Below, one piece after another: positions 527 through 21,954 of a DNA stretch of 32,000 bases (position 1 is its first letter; each line of letters begins with the position of its first letter). Source of the stretch: Candidatus Saccharimonadota bacterium (GTDB lineage Bacteria > Patescibacteriota > Gracilibacteria > BD1-5 > UBA6164); assembly GCA_963677765.1 (NCBI GenBank), contig OY782392.1, forward strand, positions 690,001-722,000, read 5' to 3'. The translations under genes and the position numbers were made by a program. The notes beneath the pieces were generated by a model that did not search any database, was not told the DNA's origin, and saw only the letters and a program-made list of their open reading frames with translations.

Positions 527-595
527 AATAAATAAATTAATATTATAATATAATATTACCTTATTTATTTTAAAATAACAAAAAATAAAAGATAA

Positions 596-1039
596 TTATT
601 TATTATCTTTTATTTTTATTTCTTTTGTTATTTTGTTTTCTTCTAATCAACTAGGGTTTGCATTTTCAAAAATCAAAATTATATTACTTATATTTATATT
701 TTCTATATCTATTTTAGATGAAAAATTAATATAATCACTAGTCATCCAGTTTTCATTTGTTTTTGCTATATTTTGTGATAATAAATTTTCTCAATCATAT
801 AATTTTACAATGAAACTAGCTTCAAAAAACCATTTTCAAGTTGCACTTCAATTTATATGAATGTTTTTTTCTTCTATAGTTATTTCTCATTTAATTTCTT
901 TTTGATTATCTTCAAACTCTAAAGTATTTTCTTTGTTTTCTAATGTTATATTTTTAGTTTCTTTTATTGGTTTTTGTTCTTTTATTATATAACAAGAACT
1001 CATTGTTAAGCTAATTAATAATATTATTAAGGTTTTCAT
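596..1039 (-). CDS. Gmad2-like immunoglobulin-fold lipoprotein
   Basis: 147-aa ORF checked codon by codon. It has a signal peptide with a lipobox-like MKTLIILLISLTMSSC. The core GSATGKWFFEASFIVKLYDGENLLSQNIAKTNENWMTSDYINF...NANPSGL resembles the Gmad2 Ig-like domain consensus (FEA.F.v.l.d..g..l, W...f.pF, NPSG). Four in-frame TGA codons read as Gly. Confidence 0.65.
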
Positions 1040-1121
1040 AAGTTTTTTTATTTTTTAATATATTAATAATATTTAAATTAAATAAATAACAAAAATTAAA
1101 ATAAAAAACTTGTAAAAACTG

Positions 1122-1170
1122 ATAAACAGTTAATATTTATAGTATAGGATGATAAATATTAACTGTTTAT
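1122..1170. promoter_or_regulatory. perfect 19-bp inverted repeat (11-nt spacer) abutting the gpx start codon; candidate operator or 5' hairpin
   Basis: ataaacagttaatatttat (1122..1140) is the exact reverse complement of ataaatattaactgtttat (1152..1170). The spacer is agtataggatg. The gpx ATG is at 1173. The left arm overlaps a possible TTGTAA ... TAATAT promoter. Confidence 0.45.
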
Positions 1171-1172
1171 TT

Positions 1173-1652
1173 ATGAATGAATTATATAATTTAAAAGCAG
1201 AACTTCCATCGGGAGAATTAGTTAGTCTTGGAAAATATAAAGGGAAGGTAATTCTTATAGCAAATACAGCTAGTAAATGTTGACTTACTTATCAATATCA
1301 ATGATTAGAAGATTTATATAAAAAATATAAAGATGATTGATTAGTTGTTTTATGATTTCCATGTAATCAATTTGCAAATCAAGAACCTTGAGATGATAAT
1401 TCAATAAAACAAAATTGTTTGATTAATTATGGTGTTACATTTCCTGTATTTAAAAAAATAAAGGTTAATTGATATAATACTCATGAAATATTTGATTACT
1501 TAAAAAATAATTCTAATAGCTTTTTCTGAAAAAAAATAAAATGGAATTTTACAAAATTTCTTGTATCTAAAGATTGAAAAACTATTAAAAGATTTGCACC
1601 AATAGTTAAGCCTGAAAAATTAGAGTCACAAATAATTAAGTTTTTGAAATAA
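1173..1652 (+). CDS. gpx: glutathione peroxidase (Cys-type)
   Basis: 159 aa. Motifs seen: VILIANTASKCGLT, LVVLGFPCNQFANQEPG, NYGVTFPVFKKIKVNG and KWNFTKFLV. All eight in-frame TGA codons sit on glycines conserved in GPx proteins. Confidence 0.95.
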
Positions 1653-1695
1653 AAATTATAAATGAATAATTAAAAATATAATATAAAATAAAATA

Positions 1696-2073
1696 ATGAT
1701 CCATATAAACTTTTCAAATAAATGTTCAAAAGATAATAAGTTAATCACAGATATGACAGAAGAAGAATATTATCAATATAGAAGATGTCATGCGATTAAT
1801 ATTCTTAATTGATTTATTTTTTCATCAATTTTACCGATTATTATTATTTTTGTAATTTATTTAAGCTGAGAAATTAAATATTTTATTGAATATCCATATA
1901 TTTCTTGAATTATTTCTATTTTTTTTGTTCCATCTATTTTTTTTATGTTTTGGTATTTTTTTATGTTATTTTTTAATTATAGATCTGGAACTTATCTTTT
2001 AGGTTTTTTATTTTCTTTGATAATTACCTGATTTATATTTGCTACTTTTTGGTGATTTATTCATAGTTTATAA
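1696..2073 (+). CDS. small integral membrane protein, unknown function
   Basis: 125 aa with about three hydrophobic stretches (FIFSSILPIIIIFVIYL, IISIFFVPSIFFMFWYFFMLFF, LLGFLFSLIITGFIFATFWGFI). No family recognised. Confidence 0.55.
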
Positions 2074-2152
2074 AAAAGTATGTTGTTTACTATTTAATTG
2101 ATTTTTATTTAATATTATTTATAATATATATTGTTATAATTAATAAAAATAT

Positions 2153-2794
2153 ATGAATAGTTTAAATATAGAACATTCAGATCATAATAGAGAATGATTA
2201 ACTCCAGTAAAAATAGTTCATTTATTTCAAGTTTTATTTAATAAAGAAGCTACTAAGGTTTTAGATTCAGTAAAAGAATTTTGAGATATAAGTTTTGATT
2301 ATTTACAAAAAAAATGAAAGTCAGGTATTATATTAGATATTGATGAATGTATAGCACCTCATCATTGAAAAATATTAGAAAAAAATGAAAAAATTATAAT
2401 TGATTTATTGATTAAATGATGGGAAATAGTTATTTTTTCAAATATGAAAAAGTCTGATAGATATACAAATTTAGAAGAATTATGAATAAAAGTAGTAACT
2501 TCAAAGTATGCTAAACCAGATAAAAGATGATTTAATGAATGTGTTGATTTAATCTGAAAATCTAGAGAAGAACTTATTATGATTTGAGATAATTTTTTAA
2601 CTGATTGATGATCTATTAGTGCGGGAATTGATTTTATAAAAGTTGAACCAATATTTACTTTAGAAGATAAAGTTTCTTTTTCAAGAACTATTCAAATTTA
2701 TATGAGAAAAATAGTTGATAAAATCGCTGTTATAAGATGAAATATTGATTCAAAAGAAAAGTCTGAAGAAGTATTTAAAGATAGTTTTGTTTAA
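2153..2794 (+). CDS. yqeG: YqeG-family HAD-IIIA phosphatase
   Basis: 213 aa. HAD motif I is ILDIDECIAPHHG, followed by IVIFSN, YAKPDKRGF and MIGDNFLTDGG, in the order typical of the YqeG/GEP4 subfamily. Confidence 0.75.
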
Positions 2795-2806
2795 TAATGT
2801 TTTATA

Positions 2807-2847
2807 AAAAAAGACAACTAATTAATTAGTTGTCTTTTTTGTTTGTT
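2807..2847. terminator. A-tract / GC-poor hairpin / T-tract bidirectional terminator, copy 1 of a 41-bp element present three times
   Basis: aaaaaagacaactaattaattagttgtcttttttgtttgtt has stem gacaactaat/attagttgtc flanked by A6 and T6. It lies 13 nt after the yqeG-like stop. Identical 41-mers are at 5196..5236 and 13678..13718. Confidence 0.75.
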
Positions 2848-2976
2848 GTTTTTTAAAATATTTAAGGTCATAGATATCAAATTTTTTAATTTGGTATTCT
2901 TTTTTTATTGTTCTGTTTTGCTTTAATATTAAAAATATGTTTATATATTAATATATATAATATTAAATTTAATTAT

Positions 2977-5178
2977 ATGCCAATAATAAATTGTGATAAG
3001 TGCAATAAGGAATATGATATAAAAATAGAGTCATTATGAAAAAAATGAAAATGTTCAAATTGTTGAAATGAATTTATTCTAAAATTAGAACATAATAATG
3101 AAAATCATAATAAAAAAAATGATTCAAAAATAAATAATTATATGGATAAATTTAATTTTAAATACAACTTTAAGATTTTTATAAAAAAAGTTATTAAAAT
3201 CATTAAGTGGTTTTTTATCTTTTTTATTTTGTTATTTATAATATTTTTAATAAGTATTTATTTATGAAGTTTAAATTCATACAAACAAACTGATTTTAAT
3301 ATTCCAGATAATTTTTTTAATACTAAATATTGAAATGAGGATCCATATTCTGAAAAAAATTGATTTGAATTATTTATAAAATATATTAATAGATTAGAAT
3401 GAAAATCACTTTATTTTGATGCCCTTAGCAAATGCGTAATAGATAATTATGAAGAATGTGAAAAAATAACTTCAAAGCCTATTGATGATATAAAGATTAG
3501 AGAAATAAGAAAATTTATTATAAATAATAATAGTATAGAAAAAATAGCTTCTAAATATGAATTTAATGATGGTAATATAGATGCTTACAATAGAATAATT
3601 GATTATAATATATCTAATATTAATTATAAAATTAAAGATGAAAATAATTTGGATAAAATATCTTTTGATGAAATAAAACTTAAAGATTTATGAAATATAG
3701 ATTTAGATATTTTAGATTCTTATTTTAAATGATTAGATTACTTTAATAAAAATAAGAATTATATATTAGAAAAAGAATTTAAAGAATTTGAAAGATTTGT
3801 TTATTTAAATGAAAAAACTCAGGATAAAATAAATAATAAAGATTATATTTTACTAACTCCTGAATATTCAGATGAATATAATTGAGAAAATATTTATTGA
3901 GAATGAAAAGAATTAGTATATACACCTTTGATACAATATTCTAGATGAATAAGATATGTTGTGTATAAAAATTTTGAAGAATGAGAATATGATAAATGAG
4001 TGAATATTTTATTAAATTATCAAAAATTTATTGATAATTTGATGAATAAAACTGAAAATTATGTTATAAACACTTTGGTCTACATTACTATTAGTAAAAT
4101 TAATTTGGAGTCAATAGATTACTTTTTAAGTAACTATGATGTACCAGAAAATCAAAAAATTGATATTTTTGATACACTTAATAATGATATTGATGAAGGA
4201 ATAATAGAGAATTCTTTGAAGAAAGAACATTTAATCAATAGAACTATTTTTAAATATTTATACGATTCACGCTTTGATAATAATTGAAATTTAATTTGAT
4301 ATATTATTTCATGAATTAAATATAATTTTTTATTTTCTTTACGTGAAACAGAATTAATTAGTGATATAAAAGCATATAATTTAATAAAGAATAAATGAGA
4401 TATATGAGATTTTGAATGTTGATTTTCATTATATAATTATATTTGAAGAGCTGTTATTTGTAATTATTCTGCTAATTATACTACCCAATTTAATAAAGAA
4501 TTAGACTTAAGAAATTTCAGACAAAGTATACTAAATAAGTTATTAGATAAAAAATACAATAATTTAAATAAAGAAAATAGTTATAAAAATTTTGATAAAT
4601 CTGATACTTTAGAATCTTCTAATAATTTAGAAAATACCATTGAAAAAATAAATTATCACTATTCAAAAGATAAAGATACTATTTATGCTGATTGAGAACC
4701 TATAAAACAAATAGATTTTTGATCTTTTGAAATTATTCATCAACACTATGCAAAGGATAAAAATAATGTTTATACCAGTGGTAAAGTAATAAAATGAGCT
4801 AATCCATCATCATTTGAAGTTATATTTGCATTATATTCAAAGGATGATAAAAATGCTTATTTTGTAGATAGGATAATAGATAATGTAGATATATGAACAT
4901 TAACTGTTATGGATTATTCTCTTTATGCAAAAGATAAAAATAATGTTTATTTTAGATGAGAGTATTTAGAATGAATAGATTGACCTTCATTTGAGTTAAT
5001 TAATAATACCTATTCAAAAGATAAAAATAATATTTATTATGAACATAAATTAATAGAATGATCCGACCCTTGATCATTTGAGTTAATTAATAATATGTAT
5101 TCAAAAGATAAAAATAATTGTTATAAGTTTACAGAAAAAATTCCTATGTCATTTTGTGAAGATAATACTTATCATTAA
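2977..5178 (+). CDS. zinc-ribbon / single-pass membrane / DKNYY-repeat protein
   Basis: 733-aa ORF with no TAA/TAG in frame (checked line by line). The N-terminus has a CxxC...CxxC zinc ribbon (CDKCNKEY...CSNCGNEF), followed by a TM segment (WFFIFFILLFIIFLISIYL). The C-terminus carries at least 5 repeats of Y(S/A)KDKNN(V/I/A)Y...FE(L/V)I, which is DKNYY-family-like. Confidence 0.75.
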
Positions 5179-5179
5179 T

Positions 5180-5247
5180 TAATATTTCAAATACTAAAAA
5201 AGACAACTAATTAATTAGTTGTCTTTTTTGTTTGTTATTTTTTTAAT
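5180..5247. repeat. left copy of a perfect 68-bp direct repeat (candidate att site) bounding the island
   Basis: 5180..5247 is identical to 13662..13729 at a constant offset of 8482. The next 9 nt still match 7 of 9 positions of the tRNA-Pro 3' end (agtcggtga vs ggtcgggga), after which the sequences diverge. Confidence 0.85.
5196..5236. terminator. bidirectional hairpin terminator, copy 2 (inside the left direct repeat)
   Basis: Same 41-mer as 2807..2847. It starts 18 nt after the stop of the 733-aa gene. Confidence 0.7.
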
Positions 5248-5318
5248 AGTCGGTGATAGTGAACAGGATTAGAACTGAGATTGAGGAGTGGAATGGGTAT
5301 ATAAAATTATAAATTTTA
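5241..5318. repeat. imperfect ~80-bp repeat, left copy (partner at 13404..13482)
   Basis: Blocks shared in the same order are ttttaat, gattagaactgagat (5267..5281 = 13430..13444), aggag and tatataaaattataa (5298..5312 = 13463..13477). Small indels separate the blocks. Confidence 0.5.
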
Positions 5319-5452
5319 AAATAAATTAATTTACAGAAATATAAATCTTTTATCTTATAGTTATAATATCAGTTAGCTATTATTATTTTTTCAAAAAAGT
5401 TGAATATTATATCTGATAATGGTAAAAAAATATTTTTTAATTATTTTTTATT

Positions 5453-7228
5453 CTATTCTTTAATACCAAAAATATCTTTAAATAAAAACTTATTATTATT
5501 AATTGAAAATTCATGTGAAATATTTTTTATTTTTATTGTATTATATTCTTGATTTTTTAAAACATGAAACATATCATCAAATATATTTTCAGAACCTCAT
5601 AATTTAAATCTATTTAAATTAAATTGAGCCCAATTTGATACTGCTAAATTCTTATTTTTAATAGAATATCAATATCATTTGGTTTTTATTACGTTTTTAG
5701 ATATTCAAAAAAGATAAACTTTATTAATAGATTTTTCCTTTTTTAGATTAAGTTTTATAGATTGAGCTAATTTTAATAATCAATTTTCTTCTATCCAATT
5801 ATCTACTTTTAAAGCCCATGAATCTAATTTTTCTGCTAAATTACAAGCTCTACTCCTTAATTTTCTTACATCGTTAAAATGATAATCTTGCCATTTAATT
5901 TGAAATAATGCTAAATTACCTGTAACTCTATCAAAAATAACTGCATCAATATCAGTACAGACATTATTTAATGATTTTAGTTTTATATTTCAATCAATAT
6001 TATAGTATTTATTACCTGCAAAAATAGAATATAAATTATTTCTTAACCATTCTTCTCTAAAAGATGAAATATCATTTATAAATTTTGGATTTCTATGTGT
6101 TAAAATATCTATAACAGAAAAAAATGGATTTTCTTCCATGCTAGATATAGGTCTTAATAAAAAACCGTTACCAGAATCTATTAATAATGGTATAAACTTT
6201 GATGTTGATTTTTTTAATAAATTAAGATCTTCAGGTCTCAAAGTAATAGCATTTAAAGCTTCAGTAATTATTTTTTTATCAATATTGTAAAACATTGATA
6301 TTGAATTTATAAGTTCTTCAATTTTCGTAAATAAAGTAAGAGTTTGCCTTACTAAAACTTCAGGGTATTTTTTATGAGCTAGTAATGTACTTTGGGTATG
6401 TTTAAGATGAAAACTAGTAATACTTAGAATAACAAGTTTTATATCTCATCCATTAATATTTCAAATTTTTAATTTATCATGAAATCAAGCTTCTTCACAC
6501 CAATTATTAACAATCTCTAAAGCTTTTAATGAATAATGTTTATCAATTTCTGGAGTGCTATCATATTTTATCATTATTCCTTTTCATGAATCCCAAGGAC
6601 TAATCTGTTTAAGTAAACTTTTTTCAATATTATTTGCATAAAATTTTGAATAATCAAAATCACATGAAATATAAAACATTCATTCTTTATTGGAGAAATC
6701 TTCTAAATTCTCTTTATCTATACGTTCCCATTGATTAAAATATTTATTTTTTTCATCTTTTAATTCTTCTTTCAATTCAAAATATTCTATTCACATTAAC
6801 CTATCAAGATGTTGAGAATTTATATCTATATTTTTATTTTTCTCAAAAATAAATTTATTATTCTCTTTTTTAATTAACACTACATTAGCTTTTACCATAT
6901 CAATAACCCTATTTAACATAACAATAGTTCATAACTTATACAATAAATTAAATGCATATTTAAAAGATTGTTCAGTACTTTCAGAAAAAGGAAAACCTCA
7001 AGCATTAATACCTGAAAATAAGAATGAAGTTGATAAACTCCATCACATTTTTATAATAGAATTAGTTATTTCATCAGTATTAGTAGCAATGCTATGTAAA
7101 TCTAAAACTCTTAATGTTTCTGTAAATATAGTAAATTTTATTAATGAATCTGATGGTAAGCTATCTTCTATTTCAGTTAATAAATTATCTATAATTATTT
7201 CTAATTCTTTACAAATTTCATTGGACAT
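5453..7228 (-). CDS. 591-aa protein of unknown family with a C-terminal PD-(D/E)xK-like motif; last gene of the island operon
   Basis: Single ORF under table 25, with no in-frame TAA/TAG over all 592 codons (verified). The track ORFs 5990..6295 and 7043..7228 are fragments of it. It starts MSNEICKELEIIIDNLL. The candidate nuclease core is CTDIDAVIFDRVTGNLALFQIKWQD. Confidence 0.7.
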
Positions 7229-7251
7229 ATCAATAATTTTAATATTAATGG

Positions 7252-8235
7252 TTAACTACTTTTAATTTCAGTAATAAAATATTTATTTATTTCTTTATCC
7301 CACCTTATAGTATCTTCCAATATATTTATATAAGGGTTAGAAATCATCAAGGGAATATAATTTGGATTTTTAATTTCATCCCTATTAACTATATATAAAA
7401 AATATTTTTCTTTCTTATTCTTTGCTGTTTCCATTTCATTTTGTGTCCAATAAAAATAGGGAATATTTCAAGTATATGACTTTACTTCAATATACCTATA
7501 GTCATTTATTGATTCTTGATTGTCAAATGATAAAATATCATATCAAGCATTACAATCAAATGGAGCAATCCATTGAATTCATTCTTTATTATTTAGTCTT
7601 AAATTTTCATATTTTAATACGTATTCTTCTGCTATTTCTCAATTAATTTGTTGTTTCTCAATATTTTGTTTTAATTCATCAATTCATATTTTCCTTTTTC
7701 TTATTTCTGTAATAAAATATTTATCAAAAAACTTTTTCCATCAAGGATTTATTATTAGTTTCTTATTTGGAAAATCAGGATGTTTTACTAAAAAATTAAA
7801 GTCCAAAAGAAGATTTCTTATATTTGCATACTTTACTCAAAAGGCTGAATAATCAATTTGAATAGTTTTATATATTATATCATATGAACTATATTCTGAT
7901 GTTAGAATACTATAAAATGTTTCGTCTTTATGAAAAGCTAATAAAAAGCCCTCTAATAATTTTTGTTTACATAAAGTTTCACTTATAGCAATATTTCTAT
8001 ATTCTACTCATTGTTCTATTTCTTTTGAATCTTCATTTATGTAAATTATTTTTGATAATTTTAATAGAGGAATACATCAATCAAATATTCATTTATTATC
8101 AATAATCTTATTATAAAAATATCATTTTATATCTTCTTCGGTAAGAAGGTTATCATTATTTCTTAGATGTTGAAAAAGTTCCCAAAAAAATCAGGGAGTT
8201 CATAAATTATTATAATTTTTTAGCTCTTCTAGCAT
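7252..8235 (-). CDS. DUF3883-domain protein (predicted PD-(D/E)xK-fold nuclease domain at the C-terminus)
   Basis: 327 aa, translated codon by codon. The C-terminal GEIAEEYVLKYENLRL...NAGYDILSFDNQESINDYRYIEVKSYTG...WTQNEMETAKNKKEKYFLYIVNR matches the DUF3883 pattern (GYDI ... IEVK ... YyLYvV). The ATG at 8235 overlaps the SNF2 gene 3' end by 26 nt. Confidence 0.7.
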
Positions 8236-10198
8236 AGTCTTCTAATAATGATTTAATAATATCTGTTTCGTCATTATCATCTATTATTTTAAATAAAGGA
8301 ATATCTTCATCAATTATCTTTTCCATTCTTTTTACTTTATCATTTAATCTATCATTAATTACTGTATCTATAGAATCTTTTGATATTATGTAAAAGTAAT
8401 TTGTTTCAGTTCATTCTTTTAGTCCAACACGATGTATACGATCTTTTGATTGAAGGAAGTTAGAACAATTATAATCTCTTTCCATATAGATTGCATTATG
8501 GCATCATTTATGTAGTGATATTGATTCAGATACAGAAAATGGGTTTGCAATAACTAAGTTAAAATCTTGGTTATCTGGATTGTTAAATTTATCAATTATT
8601 TTTTCTCTCTCTTCTTGAGGAATTTTACCTATTAATAATTCTGATTTTATATTTAAACTCTTAAGATAATCTTGTAGTTCTTCAGCATTTTGAATAAAAA
8701 TAGTCCATATTATAACTTTTCACTTTTCTTTAGTTATTTTATCAATGATTTCTTTAACTTTTTGAAATTTTATAGGAATATTCCCATTTTTTCAAAAACT
8801 ATTTATTTTTGAAAAAATAAATGAGTCATCTATTGTTTCATTATTCAGTAAGGCAAATTTTAAATTTGGGTCTTGTTCTCAATCAATTCATGCTTCTAAA
8901 GTATCTTTTAATACTTTAGTAAGTAATTTTGGATTTGTAGCAGCTTGTCTTAAACGAATTAATTTAGCTTTATTTAAAGTATCTTTTATTGATGCATTTG
9001 GGTCCTTTGAAAATGATTCTATATATTTTCATTCAATGAAATCATATATTTCTCTTTGTTCATCTGTCATATCAACATATATAATATTCTCTTTTATTTC
9101 AGGTAATTGTAAATCTTTTTTCTTTATTCTTATAAAATAGGGATTTATATTATTTATGAAATCTTTTATTCTATTACTATCAGTACTATTTTGATTTTTT
9201 GTTAATTCTTTTAATTGGTCATAGTGAATTTTTAATATATCTTTATATTTAAAAGGGTATATAAAACGGTATAGATTAAAAATATCTTCATATCAATTTG
9301 GTACTGGAGTTCATGTTAATATTACTCTTGAAGTTGCTTCTTTTGCTATTTCGGCAACACTTTCTCACCAAATTCAATTTGGATTTTTAATACGATGAGC
9401 TTCGTCTACAATAACCATTACTTTATTTTGTTTTAAGAAATCTGTAATTTCTTTTTCAAATATATCAACTCATCAATGAGAAACTAAAGTTAATTCTTTA
9501 GGATTATTTGAATATAAATGTTCTTCTTTCTTTTTTCTAGAAATTGATATATCTCAAGATAATCTTTGACTTTCTACTTTATATCAAAAACATTCCTCAT
9601 ATTCTTTCTCCCATGGAGCAAAAGAAGATAAAGGTCAAATAATTAATAATTTATCAACATGTTTAGAATCATTTTCAGGTAAGCTTTTTAAGTATGTATA
9701 TGATCAATATACTATGGAAGTTTTTCAAGCTCATGGAACAGCAAAATTACATGAATTTTGAGAAAAAGCCATATGAAATGCTGATAACATTTGTAAAGGA
9801 TATAGAGTTCTACTCATTCATTTTTCCAATACATTTTTAAATTCTCTAAAATCAGCTTCTAATTCACCTGAATCAGAAAAGTCATTGTTTCTTATCTTTT
9901 TTGCCTTAGAAGAAAATTCATTAAAATTTTCTTGTTCTTTATTATATGACTCTAGCTCAGTTTTGATACTTGAATCAAAAATAATTTTATAATTAAACTT
10001 ATTAAAAATATTTTTTATTTCTTCAAGAATTATTATTTTATTTAGGTTTGAAAAAGGTATTTTCAATAAACTGTTATCTATAAAATAATTAAGTCTTTTT
10101 AATCATATTATTAATCTTTTATTTTCATTTATTGAAATATTGTTTCATTCTATTAAAAAATTATCTCATTTTATTGAAATATGTATTTCATTTTGCAT
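8210..10198 (-). CDS. SNF2/RAD54-family helicase (dsDNA translocase) with an N-terminal extension of about 130 aa of unknown function
   Basis: 662-aa ORF verified free of TAA/TAG. Motif I is AVPGAGKTS, motif II MVIVDEAHRIKN and motif III ILTGTPVPNG. The C-lobe reads KVIIWTIF...ESISLHKGCHNAIYMERDYNCSNFLQSKDRIHRVG. Confidence 0.9.
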
Positions 10199-10206
10199 AA
10201 ATAAAA

Positions 10207-11580
10207 TTAATTAGTTTTTATATCTTTTTCTAATTGATAAGTTATTTTTTGAATATCTTTTGTGTAAGTTAATATTTCATTTTTATCATTATCAGAAACT
10301 TTTGTTGAATTTAGTGAATTTAATAATTCAATAACTTTCTTTAAAATTGATTTTGGAGATTTTGAAAACATCATTGATTCTAAAATATTGTCTAATACTT
10401 CTATTTTTTCAATTACATCATCATTTTTTGAATTTTTATTTATCTTGGCAACAGAAATAGCATCAATTGCTTTATTAACTAATTTTAAAGGTTCATTTTT
10501 ATGGAGCTGATTTCCTAATTTTGTTTCATGATCTTCTAAGTTTTGTTTTAATAAATCATAACTATCATCTATAAACTTTGAGTCTCTACTATCTAAAGTA
10601 CTTTTTAAGTCTGGAGAATCAAAATTTATTTTTTCTTCTAAATCCTGAATTGGTATTATTTTTTCGAAATGGCTTGTTTTAAAACTCTCCCATATTTCTT
10701 TATTTCAGAAAAAATGATTTTGTTTTTGTCAGTTTGCAAGACTACGAAAACTTTTTCATTCATATTTTGCTCTTATATAATCAAAAGCAATTGTTTTTAA
10801 ATCATCTACATCACCATTATTATATCAATCAAATCATTTTGCACTTTGATTGTCATAGAAATTACTTAACCATCAAGTTAAACTAATAAATTGATCTTCT
10901 CTTCAATCTAATTGAGTATAAATTCAATTATAACCTAAATAATCTAAATAATCATCCATTGTGTTCATTACTGAAAGATATCATTCAATTGTAGCTTTTG
11001 TTTCTCACATCCAATCTGATATTTGTTCAACAGATACTCATTGATTAAGTAAGTCTTTTGATTTTAAGTATTTTTCTATAGGGTTATATCATAATTTTTC
11101 ATCTTCTCACATTTGGTAAGAAGTTTCTAATTTTTGTATCTCTATAGGATTTTCTTCTAAAGTTATATCTAATATTACTGTTTTAAAATATTCGTATTTA
11201 GGTATTTTATTAAGTAACATAGCTCTTCTATTTCAGTCAATAATTATTCAATCTTTTGTAATTATTCAGTATTCTTTTTGTCAGAACTTTTCTAAATCTT
11301 TTAATGTTTTCTGATTTCTGTCTATTTTTGATTTCCATAATAAATCTTCAATAACTAATTTTCAAGCTTCTGTATCTGATTTTATATCTCATCCTTGTTG
11401 CTCAAGGGATTTAGTACGGCTTAATATACGACCATTATATTTATTATAGATTAGATTCTTTAATGGAACCTCATAAACGTCAAAAGTTTTTAAAGCTCCT
11501 TTCCATAATAGTTCTTTTGATCAAATAGGATTTTGATTTAATATTTCAGAAATTTTTTCAATACGCATTTCTTTATTCAT
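10207..11580 (-). CDS. ParB/Srx N-terminal-domain protein (ParB-like nuclease/NTPase fold) with a long helical C-terminal region
   Basis: 457-aa ORF verified free of TAA/TAG. The hallmark motif is GIITKDGIIIDGNRRAMLL (compare ParB ..V.DGhRR...). No HTH or partition context is evident. Confidence 0.75.
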
Positions 11581-11585
11581 ATTTT

Positions 11586-13283
11586 TTAATTAAAAATTAA
11601 GTTTCAAATAGAATATATTGTAAATAAATGAGATTTTGGTATTTTATTTTTTGGAATAAAATCTATATTTGATATCAATTTATCATCTATAATTTTATTA
11701 GTAATAAACTCATATAGATAATTTCTAATATTTATAGGATTTTTAGTATTTTCTATATGTAAATCATTTTCATATATTTTTTGTAATTCTTGAATTTTTA
11801 TTTTTCAAATTACTTTATTAAATAGGTAATCTAATTCTTTTTTTAATAAGTCAAAATCTTCAATATTTTCTTTTAATACTTTTTCTAGCTTATTTATATG
11901 TTTTTTATTTATTTCAATATTTTTATATCATATTCAAGTTCAAAAGAAGACTTTTATAAACCATTTTTTTCATACTTCATTATTTTCATCGTAATTTAAT
12001 AAATCCACAGTAATATTGTTTTTCTTTAAAATAGGTCTTCTAAAGCGGGCATTTTTTTGTCTAGTTTTTGGTGAATTAAATTCATTTTCAGTAAATGTAT
12101 TTAAGTTTTTTACGTTTATATAGTGATTCTTTAGATCAATAAAACTTAAATTAGAAACCACTTCTTGTCATAACTTTATACGAATAGCTTTTGCTAATGC
12201 TGAACTTAAGTGAGGTGAAACCGCATTTCAAACTTGTCTCCATTTTGATCATTCTGATCATGTAAATTGGTAAGATAATGGAAATCACATAAGAGTTGAT
12301 ATTTCTCTAATAGTTGGTAATCTATATTCTCAATTTCATTTTCTATTATACTCAGATTTTAATATCAGAGCTTCTCTTGTGCTTGCTGATCTAGTGGCCA
12401 TTATAGTACGACATGGTTTATTTAAATTTTCTGGGAATGACATTTTTCACATACAAATATGATTTGTTTTTAAATCATTAGCTTTTTCCCATTCTATTTT
12501 ATATAATCATGTATCATAAAAATGATCTGTAAGTTCTAATCATTTTAATTTTAATGTTTTATAGTTAGGGTCTATAAATATAGAAGACTCAATATTTATT
12601 TTTTCTAAATTTGGTTTAGGTAGTTTATTTAACACTTCTCATAAAGTTTTATGATTAGAGTGAGTTATTGTAGGTTTTAAAAATTCTCCTGTTTTACACC
12701 ATTCTCAAGCAATAAATCTTTTTCTACTTTGAGGAGCTCAATAGTCTCATGAATTTAATATATCTCAATTATTCTTTACGCTTAGGGCTATATCTGAAGG
12801 ATTTTTTCAAATACTTTTAGCCCAATCTGATAAATTTAGCATGTCAAATGAATAATTTTCTTCAACATAATTTCTTGAATTTGGAACATTTTCCATATAC
12901 CAAGCAATTAATTTAGAATTTTTTTGATGTTTTTTTACAGCAATAACTCTTAAATAAGCCTCTATTAATTGTATTCATAGAGATTTATCTGCTTTTCCTG
13001 ATTTATTTGATGTTGAAAATGAAACACAACTAGGACTTCCAATGATAACTTCAGTATTTTCCAACTTATTAATTTCTTCTATATTTGAACTATCTTCATT
13101 CCAAAAATCAAGAACATTTTTAGTTATATCATTTAGATTATGGTTTAGATTATGAGTATCTATTGCTGTTTGCCAAAAATCAATTCATTTTATGATTTCA
13201 AATCATTGTTGTCTGAATCATTCAGAAAATCATCAAGCTCAACAAAAGAAATCAATTACTTTTAATTTTTTATATTTAGTCAT
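11586..13283 (-). CDS. DNA (cytosine-5)-methyltransferase with an atypical motif IV and a C-terminal extension of about 200 aa
   Basis: 565-aa ORF verified free of TAA/TAG. Motif I is VIDFFCGAGGFSEGF. Motif IV is [11 protein letters not shown] (canonical is PPCQxFS). Motif VI is MENV, motif VIII is APQSRKRF and motif X is KWRQVGNAVSPHL. About 200 further residues follow motif X. Confidence 0.9.
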
Positions 13284-13368
13284 TTTGTATTTTTATTGTT
13301 TAATTTTTTAATAATATATTAATTTTTAGAAAAAAGTCTAGATCAAATTTTTATAAATATCTATTATA

Positions 13369-13377
13369 ATTATACCA
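13369..13377 (-). promoter_or_regulatory. possible extended -10 (TGGTATAAT) for the island operon
   Basis: The reverse complement of attatacca is TGGTATAAT, about 86 nt upstream of the methyltransferase ATG. No convincing -35 was seen. Confidence 0.3.
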
Positions 13378-13403
13378 TATATGTAATAAAGTGTATGGAT
13401 TTA

Positions 13404-13482
13404 TTTTAATGGTTTGCTTTTGTTTAGAAGATTAGAACTGAGATAGGAGGTAGTTTGAATAATATATAAAATTATAATTTTA
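13404..13482. repeat. imperfect ~80-bp repeat, right copy (partner at 5241..5318)
   Basis: See 5241..5318. It lies between the methyltransferase promoter region and the right 68-bp repeat. Confidence 0.5.
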
Positions 13483-13513
13483 TTTGAATTTCTTCATATA
13501 TTCTTTGATTTTT

Positions 13514-13630
13514 TTAGTAATGTCTTCAATATTTTTCTATATTATTCAAAAATCTTTTATCTCCTGATATTATATTAGAAAATAATTCTGCTTTTAGTTC
13601 TATTCATATAAAATGAGATGTTGGTTTCAT
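13514..13630 (-). pseudogene. 38-codon ORF, possibly the N-terminal remnant of an ASCH/PUA-like domain gene
   Basis: MKPTSHFIGIELKAELFSNIISGDKRFLNNIEKYGRHY*. The stretch I.LKAELF..I.SG.K loosely resembles the start of ASCH domains (S.K.PWAELI.SGkKt.E.R). It is too short to be sure it is coding. Confidence 0.15.
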
Positions 13631-13661
13631 TTATATTTATTATATAATTATTATTTTATAA

Positions 13662-13729
13662 TAATATTTCAAATACTAAAAAAGACAACTAATTAATTAG
13701 TTGTCTTTTTTGTTTGTTATTTTTTTAAT
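13662..13729. repeat. right copy of the perfect 68-bp direct repeat, ending on the first base of the tRNA-Pro gene (the complement of the terminal A of its encoded CCA)
   Basis: Identical to 5180..5247. It contains the terminator hairpin that ends the tRNA operon. Confidence 0.85.
13678..13718. terminator. bidirectional hairpin terminator, copy 3; terminates the tRNA-Gly/Ile/Pro operon
   Basis: Same 41-mer as 2807..2847 and 5196..5236. The element is its own reverse complement across A6-stem-loop-stem-T6. It lies 10 nt downstream of the tRNA-Pro 3' end. Confidence 0.75.
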
Positions 13730-13805
13730 GGTCGGGGACGCGAGACTCGAACTCACAACCCCACGCTCCCAAAGCGTGTGCGCTAGCCAATTGCGCCAGT
13801 CCCCG
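13729..13805 (-). tRNA. tRNA-Pro (anticodon UGG), CCA encoded
   Basis: Hand-folded cloverleaf. Acceptor CGGGGAC/GTCCCCG, D stem GCGC/GCGC, anticodon stem CACGC/GCGTG with loop TT-TGG-GA, T arm GTGAG-TTCGAGT-CTCGC, then discriminator A plus CCA. 77 nt. Confidence 0.95.
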
Positions 13806-13813
13806 TAAAAAAA

Positions 13814-13890
13814 TGGTGGGTATAGGTGGAGTTGAACCACCGACCTCACGATTATCAGTCGTGCGCTCTAACCAACTGAGCTATACACCC
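13814..13890 (-). tRNA. tRNA-Ile (anticodon GAU), CCA encoded
   Basis: Acceptor GGGTGTA/TATACCC, D arm GCTC-AGTTGGTTA-GAGC, anticodon stem CACGA/TCGTG with loop CT-GAT-AA, and T arm GGTGG-TTCAACT-CCACC. 77 nt. Confidence 0.95.
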
Positions 13891-13978: not shown

Positions 13979-14055
13979 TGGAGCGGGTAATGGGACTCGA
14001 ACCCACAACCCTCTGCTTGGAAGGCAGATGCTCTAGCCAATTGAGCTATACCCGC
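13979..14055 (-). tRNA. tRNA-Gly (anticodon UCC), CCA encoded
   Basis: Acceptor GCGGGTA/TACCCGC, discriminator T, D arm GCTC-AATTGGCTA-GAGC, anticodon stem TCTGC/GCAGA with loop CT-TCC-AA, and T arm GTGGG-TTCGAGT-CCCAT. 77 nt. Confidence 0.95.
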
Positions 14056-14179: not shown

Positions 14180-15013
14180 TTATTTATTTTGAAGCTTAAA
14201 GGCCTTAAGTGTATTTTTCATAAGCATAGCAACTGTTAAAGCTCATACTCAACCAGGAACAGGAGTAACTTTACTTCAAACTAAATCAATCAATTTTGTG
14301 TCAGCATCTCAATATATTTTTCAATCAACTACAGTAAATCATACATCTATTACTAAAGCTCATACTTTTAGCATATTAACTTTTAGTATTTCAGGTTTTC
14401 AAGCCGCTACAATTATTATATCTGCTTGAGTAGTATGTTTTGCTATATTTTTTGTTTTACTATTACAGCTAATAACTGTTGCTCATGCATTTATTAACAT
14501 TGCTGTTATTGGTTTTCAAACAATATTACTTCTTCATACTACACATACTATTTTTCATTCTAACTCAACTTTTTCATCTTTTATAACTTCCATTATTCAT
14601 GCTGGAGTACATGGAGCAAATCAATTATTATCTCAAATAAGTATTTTTCATTGATTTACTGGATGGAAACCATCAACATCTTTTTTTGGATGTATAGAAT
14701 TTATTATTTTTGTAGAATTAATATGTTTAGGTAAGGGAAGTTGAACTATATATCAATTTATATTTTCATCATTATTGTATTCTTTTACTTTTGCTAGTAA
14801 TTCTCTTTCTTTTATATTTTCATCAAATTCTTCTAATCTAAAATTTATTCATACATATTCAGCCCATTTTCTCTTTTGATTTATATATCTTATACTTGAG
14901 CTATTTTTTCATACAAGAACAGCTAGTAAAGTAGGTTTTTTATTGTTTTTTGAAACTTCTGTTTTTATTTCATCATATATTTCTCATGCTAGTTTTTTTC
15001 AGTCTATAATCAT
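14180..15013 (-). CDS. folD: bifunctional methylenetetrahydrofolate dehydrogenase/cyclohydrolase
   Basis: 277 aa. Motifs: MIIDGKKLA...[61 protein letters not shown] and TPVPGGVGALTVAML. Confidence 0.95.
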
Positions 15014-15994: not shown

Positions 15995-16023
15995 AAAAAC
16001 TAGAATTTTATTCTAGTTTTTTT
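15994..16023. terminator. bidirectional hairpin terminator between convergent genes
   Basis: aaaaaaactagaa-tttta-ttctagttttttt has stem ctagaa/ttctag flanked by A and T runs. It overlaps both stop codons. Confidence 0.7.
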
Positions 16024-18451
16024 ATTTTGTACCTACTCTATATTCAATTTCTTTACTAACAAAATCTTTATCACGTCAGTATTTCAATCTAGATAATTCA
16101 GTAAATGCTTTTGCTAATTTATCATCTCATGTTTCAAGATAAGGATTAACAGGTATTATTGAAAAGGGAGTAGTAGGTTGATTATCTACTGCTAGTTTCA
16201 TAGTAGCCTTAAATTTATCCATATTAACTAAATCTTGATCTGAAAATGTAGGAGCATAATATTTTGCCATAAACTCTCAATCCTCAGGACCTATTTTATA
16301 ACTCATAACAGATCATACATTACCAAAAATAGCATTTTTAAGATTTAGACTTGATTTTGTTAAAGCATCACTTTGTTCTAGTTGTCATAAATATTGGTGA
16401 GCTATATTTAAACTAAGTCTATATTTTCTCGCTTCTGATAATATAGATTCTATACTATCTGTAACATAGTTTTGAAACTCATCTATATATAAGTAAAAAT
16501 CAGATCTTTCTTCTTTTGGTATTTTATCTCTTCTCATGGCTGCCATTTGTATTTTTGATACAAGAATCATACCTAGTAGTTTTGAGTTTAAATCACCAAG
16601 TCTTCATTTTGATAGGTTTACTACCAATATTTTTTTACTTTGCATTATATCAAGTATATCAAAACTAGATTTTACTTGTCATATAATGTTTCTCATCATT
16701 TTATTTGTAGTAAATTGACCAAATTTTGCTGCAAAATATGGAATGATTTCAGCTTTTTCTCTATCTCACATAGAAGCATAAGTTTTTTCCCACCAAGCTT
16801 TTACTATAGGGTTTTTTACATGTCTTATTCTATCTTTTTGAAAATCCATATCTGTAAACAATCTAACTACATCAGTTATTGCTCATCATCCTGGATAATC
16901 CATAAGAGTTAGTACCGCATTTCTAAAATAGTCTTGTAATCTTGGACCAAATATTTCGTTACCAAATAGCTTTATCATTATATTTAGTGCATCCATTGCT
17001 ACTAACTCTTTTTCATCATCATTATGTGCTTCAAGTAGATTTAATCATAAAGGTCTATCTGTATCACTAGGGTCAAAAACTATAACATCATCAGCTCTTT
17101 CTCTAGGTATAAATGGAAGTAGGTCTCTAGCTAAATCTCCATGAGGATCTATTATACAAACTCATTCTCAATTTAGGAAATCTTGTCTAGCCATAACTTG
17201 CATTATACTAGATTTACCTGTACCTGTTTGTCATATAACATAAAAATGTCTAAATCTATCTTCTTTTTTAATTCTAATATCTTTTTTTACTCATCTGTAA
17301 ATATTATGTCATAATAGTAATCATTCTTTTGGTATATTACTAGGAGCTTTTACTATTTTAAAATTTTGCCATTTTATTTCAGGAGTAGTGTTATATCTAG
17401 CATGAGGGAAGTGGAATATCGAAGCAATCTCCTCAGTATTTAAAATCATTTGTTTTAGATAAAAAGGTTTTTTAAAGTATCTAAAAATATAATTTTTTAT
17501 TAAAGAGTTTTTATTGAAATATTTTGTTGTTCTAAATTTATTAAAATCTGGGTAACTAAATTGAGTAAAACTTGAAACTATATTTTTTAATTCTGATTCA
17601 ACCATGGCTTGATTGTTTCATGTTGCTATAACTCTGATTATAGTTTCAAATCATGTTTTATCTCATTTTTCATCTACAGTTTTAGCTCTTTCTTGAGTAA
17701 GTGCTGAACTAGAGTTTTCTTCTTTTTGATTTTCTTCTCAACTAGAAGTAAGTCATTCAATTATACTTATTATAATTTTTATTGGATTTAATGTAAAAAA
17801 GCTTTTTTTACCATTAATTATTTGTGTACTTGCTTTTGAACATTTGCTTTGCCATCAATCATTTATGGGTTTCAATAATACTTGTATAACAGCTGACTCA
17901 TCTTCTTCTAATTTTGAGAAAGCTCCCAATAAGTTATTAACTGGATCTGATTCTAATTTTTGATAAGTTTTTATAGGGAAGAAAAACTCCTTTGAAGTAT
18001 TTATATATGTTGCTTCAATAAATTTTCTTTTTTTAAAAATATTTATTTCTCTAGTTTCTTCTAGTATTGCATCAGTATAAAATCAATTTACTTGTTTTTC
18101 TATTAAAAACTTATATTTTTTAGGTACTACTATATAAAAATATATTTCATTTTCATGAGCAATATATTCAAAACTTATTAAGTCTTCTCATAGTATTTTT
18201 GTTTTTATTGTATTTGAACTAAGTGATTTTAGAGAAGAAAAAAGTTGTTCCATAAGACTTATTGCTTCTTTGAAATCTTTTACAGTTTCTTTTTTCTCAT
18301 CTAAATCACTATTTTTTCTAGGTAAAGTTACTTTCAAAAATGTTAATTCCAGAGTCCTTTTATAATCATACTTTCTTTTTATAATTTTTATTATAATTTT
18401 GTATATAACGAAAACTATAAAAGAAATAGCTAAAATAAACAATAATTCCAT
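16022..18451 (-). CDS. membrane-anchored P-loop ATPase of the TraD/TraG/VirD4 (type IV coupling protein, TrwB-like DNA-binding domain) type
   Basis: 809-aa ORF checked for stops. It has an N-terminal TM segment (MELLFILAISFIVFVIYKIII), Walker A VIGQTGTGKSS, then CIIDPHGDL and VFDPSD..RPLGLNLL, Walker B FYLYIDEFQNY, and SEARKYRLSLNIAHQYL. An alternative upstream ATG at 18499 would add 16 Lys-rich residues. Confidence 0.8.
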
Positions 18452-18579
18452 TTTTTGTTTTTTAATTTTAATCTTTTTTTTATTATAACATAATTTCATC
18501 TAAAATAAAAGAAAAACAATTGATAAATTGCAAAAAAAATGTATAAAATATAATAAAATATTTTTTAAAAATTATATTA

Positions 18580-21875: not shown

Positions 21876-21954
21876 GCGGGGGTAACATAAAAGAGTGAGT
21901 GTACTAAGGCTTCAACCCTTGGGTGTGCGAGTTCAAACCTCGTCCCCCGCTCCA
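21876..21954 (+). tRNA. tRNA-Gly (anticodon UCA), the UGA-decoding tRNA of genetic code 25; CCA encoded
   Basis: Acceptor GCGGGGG/CCCCCGC with G1-C72, C2-G71 and G3-C70, plus discriminator U as in the tRNA-Gly(UCC) at 13979..14055. Anticodon stem TAAGG/CCTTG with loop CT-TCA-AC. T arm GCGAG-TTCAAAC-CTCGT. The D arm is atypical (ACAT-AAAAGAGTGA-GTGT, with no GG). 79 nt. Confidence 0.85.

Follow-up and report, generated by a model that had tools for sequence, protein, structure and literature searches.

The 32-kb window analysed here (32,000 nt of contig OY782392.1, GenBank assembly GCA_963677765.1; coordinates are those of the window) contains, at 5248-13661, an 8.4-kb block of accessory DNA that is interpreted, with somewhat more confidence than doubt, as a non-autonomous, strain-variable defence island resembling a cis-mobilizable element (CIME) and seated at a hot spot past a tRNA-Gly-Ile-Pro operon. 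The source organism belongs to the Gracilibacteria, a group of uncultured bacteria with tiny genomes in which UGA is read as glycine; how genes are gained and lost in them, and which mobile elements work across the code barrier, is poorly understood. The locus provides a concrete example of a tRNA-adjacent hot spot in a recoded genome, at which strains and species differ in their defence genes and the footprint of insertion is the operon's own terminator.

The island is bounded by two direct repeats (5180-5247 and 13662-13729) that are identical at 68 of 68 positions, the exact match extending on neither side. As the first-pass annotation of the sequence had described, the repeats lie at the 3' end of a tRNA-Pro gene; with the tRNA placed by ARAGORN and Rfam, the right copy was found to stop at the last base of the gene (position 13729). 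The same annotation had observed that the left copy runs on into bases resembling the end of tRNA-Pro, and this was borne out: the nine bases beyond it, AGTCGGTGA, match the tRNA-Pro end, GGTCGGGGA, at seven positions. In shuffled sequence, matches to that 9-mer with two mismatches or fewer number about 2.1 per 64 kb, and the chance of one falling in register was estimated at about 3e-5; the repeat is therefore effectively 77 nt long (75/77 identical). The left repeat in this extended form (5180-5256) consists of 16 nt, a 34-nt palindrome (5196-5229), an 18-nt spacer and the nine tRNA-Pro-end-like bases, and the right repeat (13662-13738) of the same 68 nt followed by the true tRNA-Pro 3' end. 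A repeat search stretched the direct repeat to 95 nt at 91% identity. Gapped extension of the left copy toward the T-loop was weak, 13 of 500 shuffles scoring as well.

The palindrome within the repeat, AAAAAAGACAACTAATTAATTAGTTGTCTTTTTT, is perfect, carries A6/T6 arms and was scored as an intrinsic terminator by terminator prediction. Its hairpin is strong on both strands (-17.6 and -16.2 kcal/mol, z = -3.8 and -5.1), each with a U-tract, in agreement with the bidirectional terminator proposed in the first pass. In a relative whose folD gene is 75% identical (locus L006, contig JAQUZB010000004.1, the same contig as L014), the hairpin is found in one copy adjoining the tRNA-Pro 3' end, with a compensated stem in which TACAAC/GTTGTA replaces GACAAC/GTTGTC. 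Both the two-strand U-tracts and this compensatory change are those of a bidirectional intrinsic terminator, and because L006 holds a single, stem-compensated copy abutting tRNA-Pro, the hairpin is the native two-way terminator serving the tRNA operon and a convergent gene. When its 20-nt core was scanned across the GTDB representative genomes, one Gracilibacteria match was obtained, namely the L006 contig, where it is single in that metagenome-assembled genome (MAG). The remaining GTDB matches were set aside as chance or convergent hairpins in unrelated low-GC organisms. The exact hairpin 26-mer had no match in the GTDB representative genomes, and the source genome therefore lies outside that collection.

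The insertion of accessory DNA at the tRNA-Pro 3' end, likewise proposed from the window, was supported by its variability among relatives of 92-96% nucleotide identity, which part from the window either precisely at the 3' end of tRNA-Pro or at the hairpin. The operon comprises tRNA-Pro(UGG) (13729-13805, minus strand; ARAGORN, Rfam 58.5 bits), tRNA-Ile(GAU) (13814-13890, minus strand) and tRNA-Gly(UCC) (13979-14055, minus strand), the latter two also placed by ARAGORN and Rfam, and lies downstream of folD (14180-15013), the product of which shares 65% identity with its counterpart in Candidatus Gracilibacteria bacterium HOT-871 and 71-76% with those encoded in NCBI MAG assemblies; the folD relatives derive from at least five sequencing runs. 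Four loci (L001-L004, about 96% identical) follow the window from folD as far as position 13727 and continue with a different terminator and unrelated DNA, and different terminators also occupy the tRNA-Pro-adjacent position in L082 and L083. The hairpin-spacer-tRNA junction is identical to that of the right repeat in L005 (95.7%) and L007 (92%; ENA assembly ERZ1673962). Locus L007 matches window 573-1689 at 92% (a lipoprotein gene and glutathione peroxidase) and reads gpx, a MarR-type gene, an S-adenosylmethionine (SAM)-methyltransferase gene, hairpin and spacer, and AATGGT, the tRNA-side version of the junction; it has no equivalent of window 1690-13677. Neither the SNF2 gene of the island nor the DKNYY gene to its left was found in the loci of the 92-96% relatives, and the 90% cluster of the SNF2 protein contains only the source contig and one other, L008 (sample ERZ1673962), which is 99.89% identical over 4.5 kb.

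Relatives carry other genes at the same position. Past tRNA-Pro in L084 (GCA_045107135.1, 2816-12316) lie genes for RloB/AAA_15, for an OLD-TOPRIM protein with a UvrD-like helicase (Gabija-like) and for an EcoRI-type methylase, a stretch that, judged by its predicted genes, is a different defence island at the same spot. In the Gracilibacteria MAG L081 (GCA_013368515.1), two serine recombinase genes are encoded about 2.5 kb past tRNA-Pro (7262-9941). Since the content past the tRNA operon differs in this way among relatives, the position is regarded as a recurrent hot spot. In L081 the last 23 nt of tRNA-Ile (4411-4433) are also repeated exactly 128 nt downstream (4539-4561), and this repeat and the serine recombinases are signs of further integrations in the same tRNA cluster. 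In L003 (1787-2145), tRNA-Pro is followed by another hairpin, GAAGAATCTTCAATTTTTGAAGATTCTT, and then by about 300 nt of AT-rich sequence with no open reading frame (ORF) and no match to the window.

No integrase, transposase or excisionase was found between the repeats by Pfam or by six-frame table-25 translation, as had been reported in the first pass. The Pfam matches of the five island proteins are DNA_methylase, SNF2/Helicase_C and NOV_C only, with none to the Phage_integrase, Resolvase, Recombinase or transposase families; the six-frame translations of 5230-5470 and 13270-13680 yielded nothing even at E = 10; and the structural model of a homologue of the fifth gene gave no recombinase-like fold match. 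Recombinase families are likewise missing from the flanking genes, which encode housekeeping or surface proteins, and no relaxase, coupling protein or integrase remnant of an integrative and conjugative element (ICE) or integrative and mobilizable element (IME) was found in the island. The earlier choice between a decayed element and a cassette mobilised in trans is still the best reading. CIMEs are decayed ICEs or IMEs described in Firmicutes (PMC5704250), and the island resembles them in that attL/attR-like repeats, here apparently the 77-nt pair, are retained in the absence of integration and transfer genes, in its apparent tandem array at a tRNA 3' end, and in being movable only with outside help; it differs in showing no detectable ICE/IME remnant and no known partner element.

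Islander-type tRNA-gene islands (PMC4383910) provide the second comparison. As in these, an intact tRNA gene is present with the island at its 3' end, the direct repeat reaches into the tRNA, the content of the island is accessory and strain-variable, and a tandem arrangement is possible. In contrast to them, the island contains no tyrosine integrase, 9-10 nt of the tRNA are repeated with two mismatches, and the tRNA gene has not been split and restored; the displaced tRNA fragment at the far end amounts to the nine bases AGTCGGTGA, seven of them matching in register. CIME-type remnants with accretion are, more exactly, the closer match. Of the first-pass description of a classic footprint at a tRNA 3' end, the flanking direct repeat stands, but the footprint is only marginally of that kind because the identity lies almost wholly in the downstream terminator, the 68 identical bases overlapping the tRNA gene by 1 nt.

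Both mismatches of the extended repeat lie in the tRNA part, and the crossover is therefore placed within the terminator. The same crossover could have been made by RecA-type homologous recombination with no att function, either by a Campbell-type single crossover in the 68 bp with a circle or sister-strain donor sharing the terminator or, in a variant, by a double crossover in the conserved flanks that swapped the whole region, the repeat then marking the length of shared homology. In favour of such a scheme, the identity is long (68 bp) and stops where homology stops, no recombinase is present, and the host-like composition fits exchange among close code-25 relatives; the cassette carried by the island is, moreover, found elsewhere in unrelated, integrase-free contexts. 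However, homologous recombination leaves unexplained why a tRNA-abutting sequence was duplicated, why relatives break exactly at the tRNA-Pro 3' end and why the element arm opens with bases that resemble the tRNA end and are kept in a distant relative, and 68 bp is a short substrate for RecA. It is considered rather unlikely, and the CIME-like island is retained as the preferred interpretation.

Two assumptions of the first pass, that the repeat is special to the island ends and that the 733-aa gene, one terminator and the tRNA represent the original arrangement, were not borne out. A third copy of the hairpin and spacer, designated H3 (2807-2857), lies between a HAD-type gene (2153-2794) and the 733-aa gene, here called the DKNYY gene (2977-5178, plus strand). 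H3 contains the exact 34-nt palindrome, matches the 68-bp repeat over about 50 nt at 96%, and looks like an older, slightly diverged copy. No further hairpin copies were found in the 32 kb, and H3 is followed by no tRNA-Pro similarity and, according to ARAGORN, by no tRNA. The DKNYY gene encodes a membrane protein with a zinc ribbon (Pfam DKNYY 2.6e-33), for which no relative above 39% identity was found in 5.8 billion protein clusters; no other assembly has it, it is missing from the 92%-identical L007, and the relatives carry other content. With a third copy following the HAD-type gene, the DKNYY gene therefore looks inserted and not a native neighbour, and it is probably the cargo of an earlier module between H3 and the left repeat. 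An older H3 together with a strain-specific gene suggests an earlier, similar event and hence a tandem array; as regards CIME accretion, H3 bounds a strain-specific gene, and the window contains no integrase-bearing partner element. In the DKNYY protein itself, a zinc ribbon at the N-terminus is combined with a membrane helix and, at the C-terminus, with DKNYY repeats, which appear in the DNA as an 87-nt periodicity (4652-5124).

The division of gene modules by three similar palindrome-bearing repeats might recall an integron-like cassette array in which the hairpins serve as attC sites, an explanation that is scarcely credible here: no IntI or other tyrosine recombinase is encoded among the 20 window genes scanned, with all genes between 596 and 21728 among them. 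Integron gene cassettes go with an IntI and a nearby attI, and their attC sites pair imperfectly and have extrahelical bases, whereas the hairpin is perfectly palindromic, with A6/T6 tracts and without bulges, as fits a terminator. The modules are, furthermore, oppositely oriented, and one of them, an operon of five genes spanning 8 kb, has an upstream region of its own. The three hairpins also sit where convergent genes need terminators, as would be the case in a native, non-mobile locus whose terminator had been copied by local duplication or gene conversion and which holds ordinary strain-specific genes in between. The lack of a compositional anomaly would agree with this, and A/T-flanked CAACTAATTAATTAGTTG hairpins are known also from unrelated low-GC genomes. 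A native locus is nevertheless judged improbable, since 68/68 identity and an in-register tRNA-like continuation are not expected of independent terminators, the outgroup MAG has one copy, the intervening content is absent from the 92-96% relatives, and the cassette is clearly horizontally mobile across phyla.

The CIME-like interpretation draws further on a conserved non-coding element. The imperfect internal repeats noticed in the first pass are present (5267-5319 and 13430-13483, about 85% identity with small indels), and the left one falls inside a block of about 115 nt that is kept in a distant relative. This block, B_L (5248-5368, plus strand), is non-coding, starts with the tRNA-end-like bases and contains the invariant elements AGATTAGAACTGAGAT and TATATAAA.TTATA and a TATAAT box. 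It aligns with L006 12004-11899 at 72.6% over 113 nt, with a local alignment score of 96 that none of 500 shuffles reached (mean 49 +/- 5), and the tRNA-end-like bases open the block in both the window and L006. In L006 it lies upstream of a small DUF4395 gene, the sole gene between the block and the hairpin/tRNA-Pro, a position which suggests where the distal end of an island would be. A shorter and more diverged copy, B_R (13411-13483, plus strand), is located 178 nt left of the right repeat and scores 76 against the L006 block (shuffle mean 39.5 +/- 4.9). It is possible that block B represents an arm belonging to an old attachment site, common to elements that target this position. Among IMG/VR viral contigs, the hairpin core had 0 matches and a block B 15-mer had 39, none longer than the 15-mer, and thus no phage attP was found.

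Several other identities for these non-coding segments were tried and rejected. Neither an Rfam match nor a consensus fold, sought on both strands, marks block B as an RNA, and it is not recognised as a decayed tRNA by ARAGORN, its likeness to tRNA-Pro being weak past the first 9 nt. The 178 nt between B_R and the right repeat show no similarity to the L006-type DUF4395 gene of which they might have been a remnant. This interval contains the 38-codon ORF listed in the first pass (13515-13631, minus strand; MKPTSHFIGIELKAELFSNIISGDKRFLNNIEKYGRHY), which was read by eye under table 25 and had no Pfam or NCBIfam match and no tblastn match in the relatives' loci fetched by then. Shine-Dalgarno-like GGAG/AGGAGG sequences were seen by eye in both block B copies (5283-5300 and 13445-13466, plus strand), followed by mini-ORFs of 3-4 codons (ATG GGT ATA TAA and TTG AAT AAT ATA TAA); these may be coincidence.

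Taken as a CIME-like insertion, the arrangement could have arisen from a circular DNA bearing the junction '...c / terminator hairpin / tRNA-Pro-end-like bases / block B...', which would have undergone a crossover with the chromosomal 'terminator hairpin / tRNA-Pro 3' end' at some point within the 68 identical bases. The 68-bp sequence would thereby have been duplicated on both sides, the tRNA operon keeping a terminator. An event of the same type may earlier have left H3 (2807-2857) ahead of the DKNYY gene, and tandem accretion would then have given the present order of HAD gene, H3, DKNYY module, repeat and block B, gene 5 and the four-gene cassette, block B and 178 nt, repeat, and tRNA-Pro. 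Further movement would need an integrase acting in trans, a neighbouring incoming element, or RecA acting on the 68-bp repeats.

As listed in the first pass, the island content is a five-gene operon, the 38-codon ORF and the imperfect internal repeats, all of which are present, the genes being read under table 25. The five genes are co-directional on the minus strand (5453-13283), and the first four of them form a cassette. Its first gene (11586-13283, minus strand) encodes a C5 cytosine DNA methyltransferase of 565 aa with a C-terminal extension of about 200 aa (Pfam DNA_methylase 2.6e-33; PADLOC MTase_II 1.8e-45), which matches PF00145 at 116.3 bits (cut-off 22) over profile positions 1-322 of 324. 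The second (10207-11580, minus strand) encodes protein X, of 457 aa, with a DGNRR motif. No family was assigned to X at default thresholds in Pfam, NCBIfam or PADLOC, and no PDB sequence match was found; it is weakly ParB-superfamily-like, the only such match being that of its Flavobacterium orthologue to ddrB-ParB (E = 0.19, weak). The third (8210-10198, minus strand) encodes a SNF2-family ATPase of 662 aa (Pfam SNF2-rel_dom 4.3e-27 and Helicase_C), and the fourth (7252-8235, minus strand) a protein with an N-terminal domain of about 180 aa and a NOV_C/DUF3883 nuclease-type domain (Pfam NOV_C 1.7e-16). DUF3883 is reportedly treated in a census of PD-(D/E)XK phosphodiesterases (PMC3424549). 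The N-terminal domain of the fourth protein has NOV_C/DUF3883 as its fusion partner in the window and in Flavobacterium, and TIR/SEFIR in Sulfurimonas, and the effector domain therefore appears from these fusions to be swappable, NOV_C or TIR. The segment 13284-13357 (minus strand), a likely promoter, forms the right edge of the cassette proper and is kept in the code-25 relatives L009 and L010.

The order C5 methyltransferase, X, SNF2 ATPase and fourth gene was found in every fully readable locus. Orthologues of X hold the same position in L009-L013 and L080, X being fixed in the cassette of all relatives, and an overlap of 20-26 nt between the SNF2 gene and the fourth gene recurs in all genomes examined (26 nt in the window), which suggests translational coupling. 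The overlap lies at 8210-8235 in the window, at 11973-11998 in L011, at 11973-11992 in L012 and at 4170-4195 in L080; in L010 the fourth gene is apparently split into two pieces. Full-length relatives of the SNF2 protein, at 60-65% identity, occur in Flavobacterium, Tenacibaculum, Sulfurimonas, Halarcobacter, Hellea and Pacebacteria, that is, in Bacteroidota, Campylobacterota, Alphaproteobacteria and Patescibacteria. The cassette was likewise found in Flavobacterium, in Sulfurimonas, in a prophage record from Streptococcus (Firmicutes) and in code-25 relatives, in differing contexts. Loci L009 and L010 match the window at 78.7% nucleotide identity from 13357/13348 down to 7272/7181 (about 7200) in other genomic contexts, and gene 5, block B and a tRNA are missing from both; in the three loci whose flanks are of appreciable length (L010, L011 and L012), neither an integrase nor a tRNA was seen near the cassette. 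The place of the fifth gene is variable, being taken by gene 5 in the window and by an HNH_2-like gene in Flavobacterium. In the Streptococcus phage Javan191 record (L080, 1-5105), the X, SNF2 and fourth genes open a predicted Streptococcus equi prophage record, which annotates the cassette mostly as hypothetical proteins and the boundary of which probably cuts the methyltransferase gene.

From its domain content we infer that the cassette is a methylation-marked defence system with a swappable effector. In such a system, methylation by the C5 enzyme would label self DNA, scanning of DNA or translocation along it would fall to the SNF2 ATPase and the weakly ParB-like X, and the effector would be the NOV_C nuclease domain (TIR in another phylum). 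A methyltransferase, a SNF2-type ATPase and a nuclease-type effector are similarly combined in one operon in DISARM class 1 (DrmD/DrmMI), Zorya (ZorD), Hma and BREX (BrxHI/BrxHII). The cassette, in contrast, lacks DrmA, DrmB (DUF1998), DrmC (PLD), the Zorya membrane proteins and PglZ/BrxC, and neither X nor the N-terminal domain of the fourth protein matches a model. PADLOC returned for DISARM only partial DrmD and DrmMII, with no DrmB or DrmC, and DrmA gave one weak, partial match on the C-terminal helicase domain of the SNF2 protein (9.2e-07). PADLOC matches were otherwise generic and partial, the best being ZorD (1.7e-21 over 190 aa); no PADLOC 2.0, Pfam or NCBIfam model corresponds to the cassette, and no named system in the literature was matched to its gene set. 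While an integrase-less island with flanking repeats is of an already known kind, its cargo is possibly undescribed. If the cassette proves to work in defence, it would add a family.

Gene 5 (5453-7228, minus strand), which would be a second candidate, encodes a protein of 591 aa belonging to an unannotated family of about 600 aa with the PD-(D/E)xK-like motif TDIDAAI...LALFQLKWQD. No match was found in Pfam, NCBIfam or PADLOC, nor a sequence match in the PDB. A search with a TGA-free fragment of 151 aa identified 107 relatives, a collinear family of about 600 aa in the alignment of which the motif is conserved. The AlphaFold model of a homologue (predicted local distance difference test score, pLDDT, 92) gave PDB matches no better than E = 0.16, the highest-ranking of which, all of them weak, were the PD-(D/E)xK nucleases Card1, Cdn1, Can2, AddAB and R2 endonuclease. 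One homologue adjoins an AbiEii gene. On these modelled and weak similarities, gene 5 is probably a separate, nuclease-type defence gene downstream of the cassette. Other defence hot spots beside tRNA genes are comparable in that two defence-type units are adjacent and relatives hold other defence genes at the locus; the window differs from them in its host, a code-25 Gracilibacteria of about 1 Mb, and in the recoding of all island genes, with TGA as glycine.

This recoding was examined in the window as a whole, which has 22% GC, yields almost no ORFs under table 11 and is densely coding under table 25. In every window gene TGA is the main glycine codon and GGN is rare, and comparison of island genes with standard-code orthologues showed TGA codons aligned with glycine in 14/23, 15/20 and 20/29 cases. 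The composition of the island is host-like and does not discriminate among the rival explanations.

A number of observations weigh against the interpretation as a CIME-like defence island. In mapped tRNA-gene islands the crossover sites are in the T-stem or anticodon region (PMC4383910), whereas here the perfect identity falls outside the tRNA gene. Hairpin copies were counted in the 32-kb window, and a dispersed repeat elsewhere in the 1.05-Mb genome is possible; a cognate integrase could similarly be encoded elsewhere in that genome, the search having covered the window. The expectation that the island would differ in composition from its flanks failed, with no anomaly in GC, tetranucleotides or codon usage (codon-usage Jensen-Shannon divergence 0.017 for the island and 0.013 +/- 0.003 for host gene subsets). 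No hairpin precedes B_R, and the tandem-array history therefore needs an extra deletion; block B could be a promoter native to the locus and not the arm of an element. For the defence role of the cassette, the evidence consists of domain content and gene neighbourhood, PADLOC having no model for it. Finally, neither the predicted empty site (733-aa gene, one repeat, tRNA-Pro) nor a circular-junction sequence was found; the search for the former used the DKNYY protein, which no other assembly has, and short-read contigs do not cross the palindrome.

The behaviour of contigs at the palindrome bears also on assembly-graph ambiguity, in which a chromosome (DKNYY gene, one repeat, tRNA-Pro) and a separate 8,482-bp circle (block B_L ... 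c, with one repeat) would have been threaded through the shared 68-mer. The graph would be expected to look identical for an integrated copy and for a chromosome with a circle whenever the island exceeds the read length, and the L005 contig indeed ends inside the palindrome while that of L007 ends 55 nt, one k-mer, after the palindrome start. On the other side, no replication initiator is encoded among the five genes, the 1.05-Mb source contig suggests a well-resolved assembly, and the cassette is chromosomal wherever its context is visible, all of which renders this explanation very improbable.

Of the loose ends, the four-gene cassette, which has no name as yet, the gene 5 family and the conserved block B hold the most interest. 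Two broader proposals, regarded as doubtful, are that the locus displays a portable attachment module of a family of recombinase-less code-25 cassettes and that its cargo is an undescribed, widespread defence system. If true, the attachment module would consist of the hairpin, a tRNA-Pro-end-like core and block B, with cassettes bringing their own two-way terminator, and such cassettes would stack in tandem past tRNA-Pro, moved in trans by a recombinase encoded elsewhere. On the second proposal, the cargo would consist of the C5 methyltransferase, the weakly ParB-like protein, the SNF2 ATPase and an adaptor domain fused to a NOV_C/TIR effector, and the defence system would have crossed a genetic-code boundary, fully recoded.

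Two further features of the window lie beyond the tRNA operon. A tRNA with the anticodon UCA (21876-21954, plus strand) is labelled tRNA-SeC by ARAGORN and occurs also in L006 and L082; because TGA is the main glycine codon of every gene, it is most likely the code-25 tRNA-Gly(UCA). An 825-aa membrane-anchored ATPase (16022-18499, minus strand) has a HerA/DUF87 match and weak TrwB/TraG-like matches; it is kept beside folD, as DUF8128 and DUF87, in all relatives examined, and is therefore assigned to the core, outside any mobile element.

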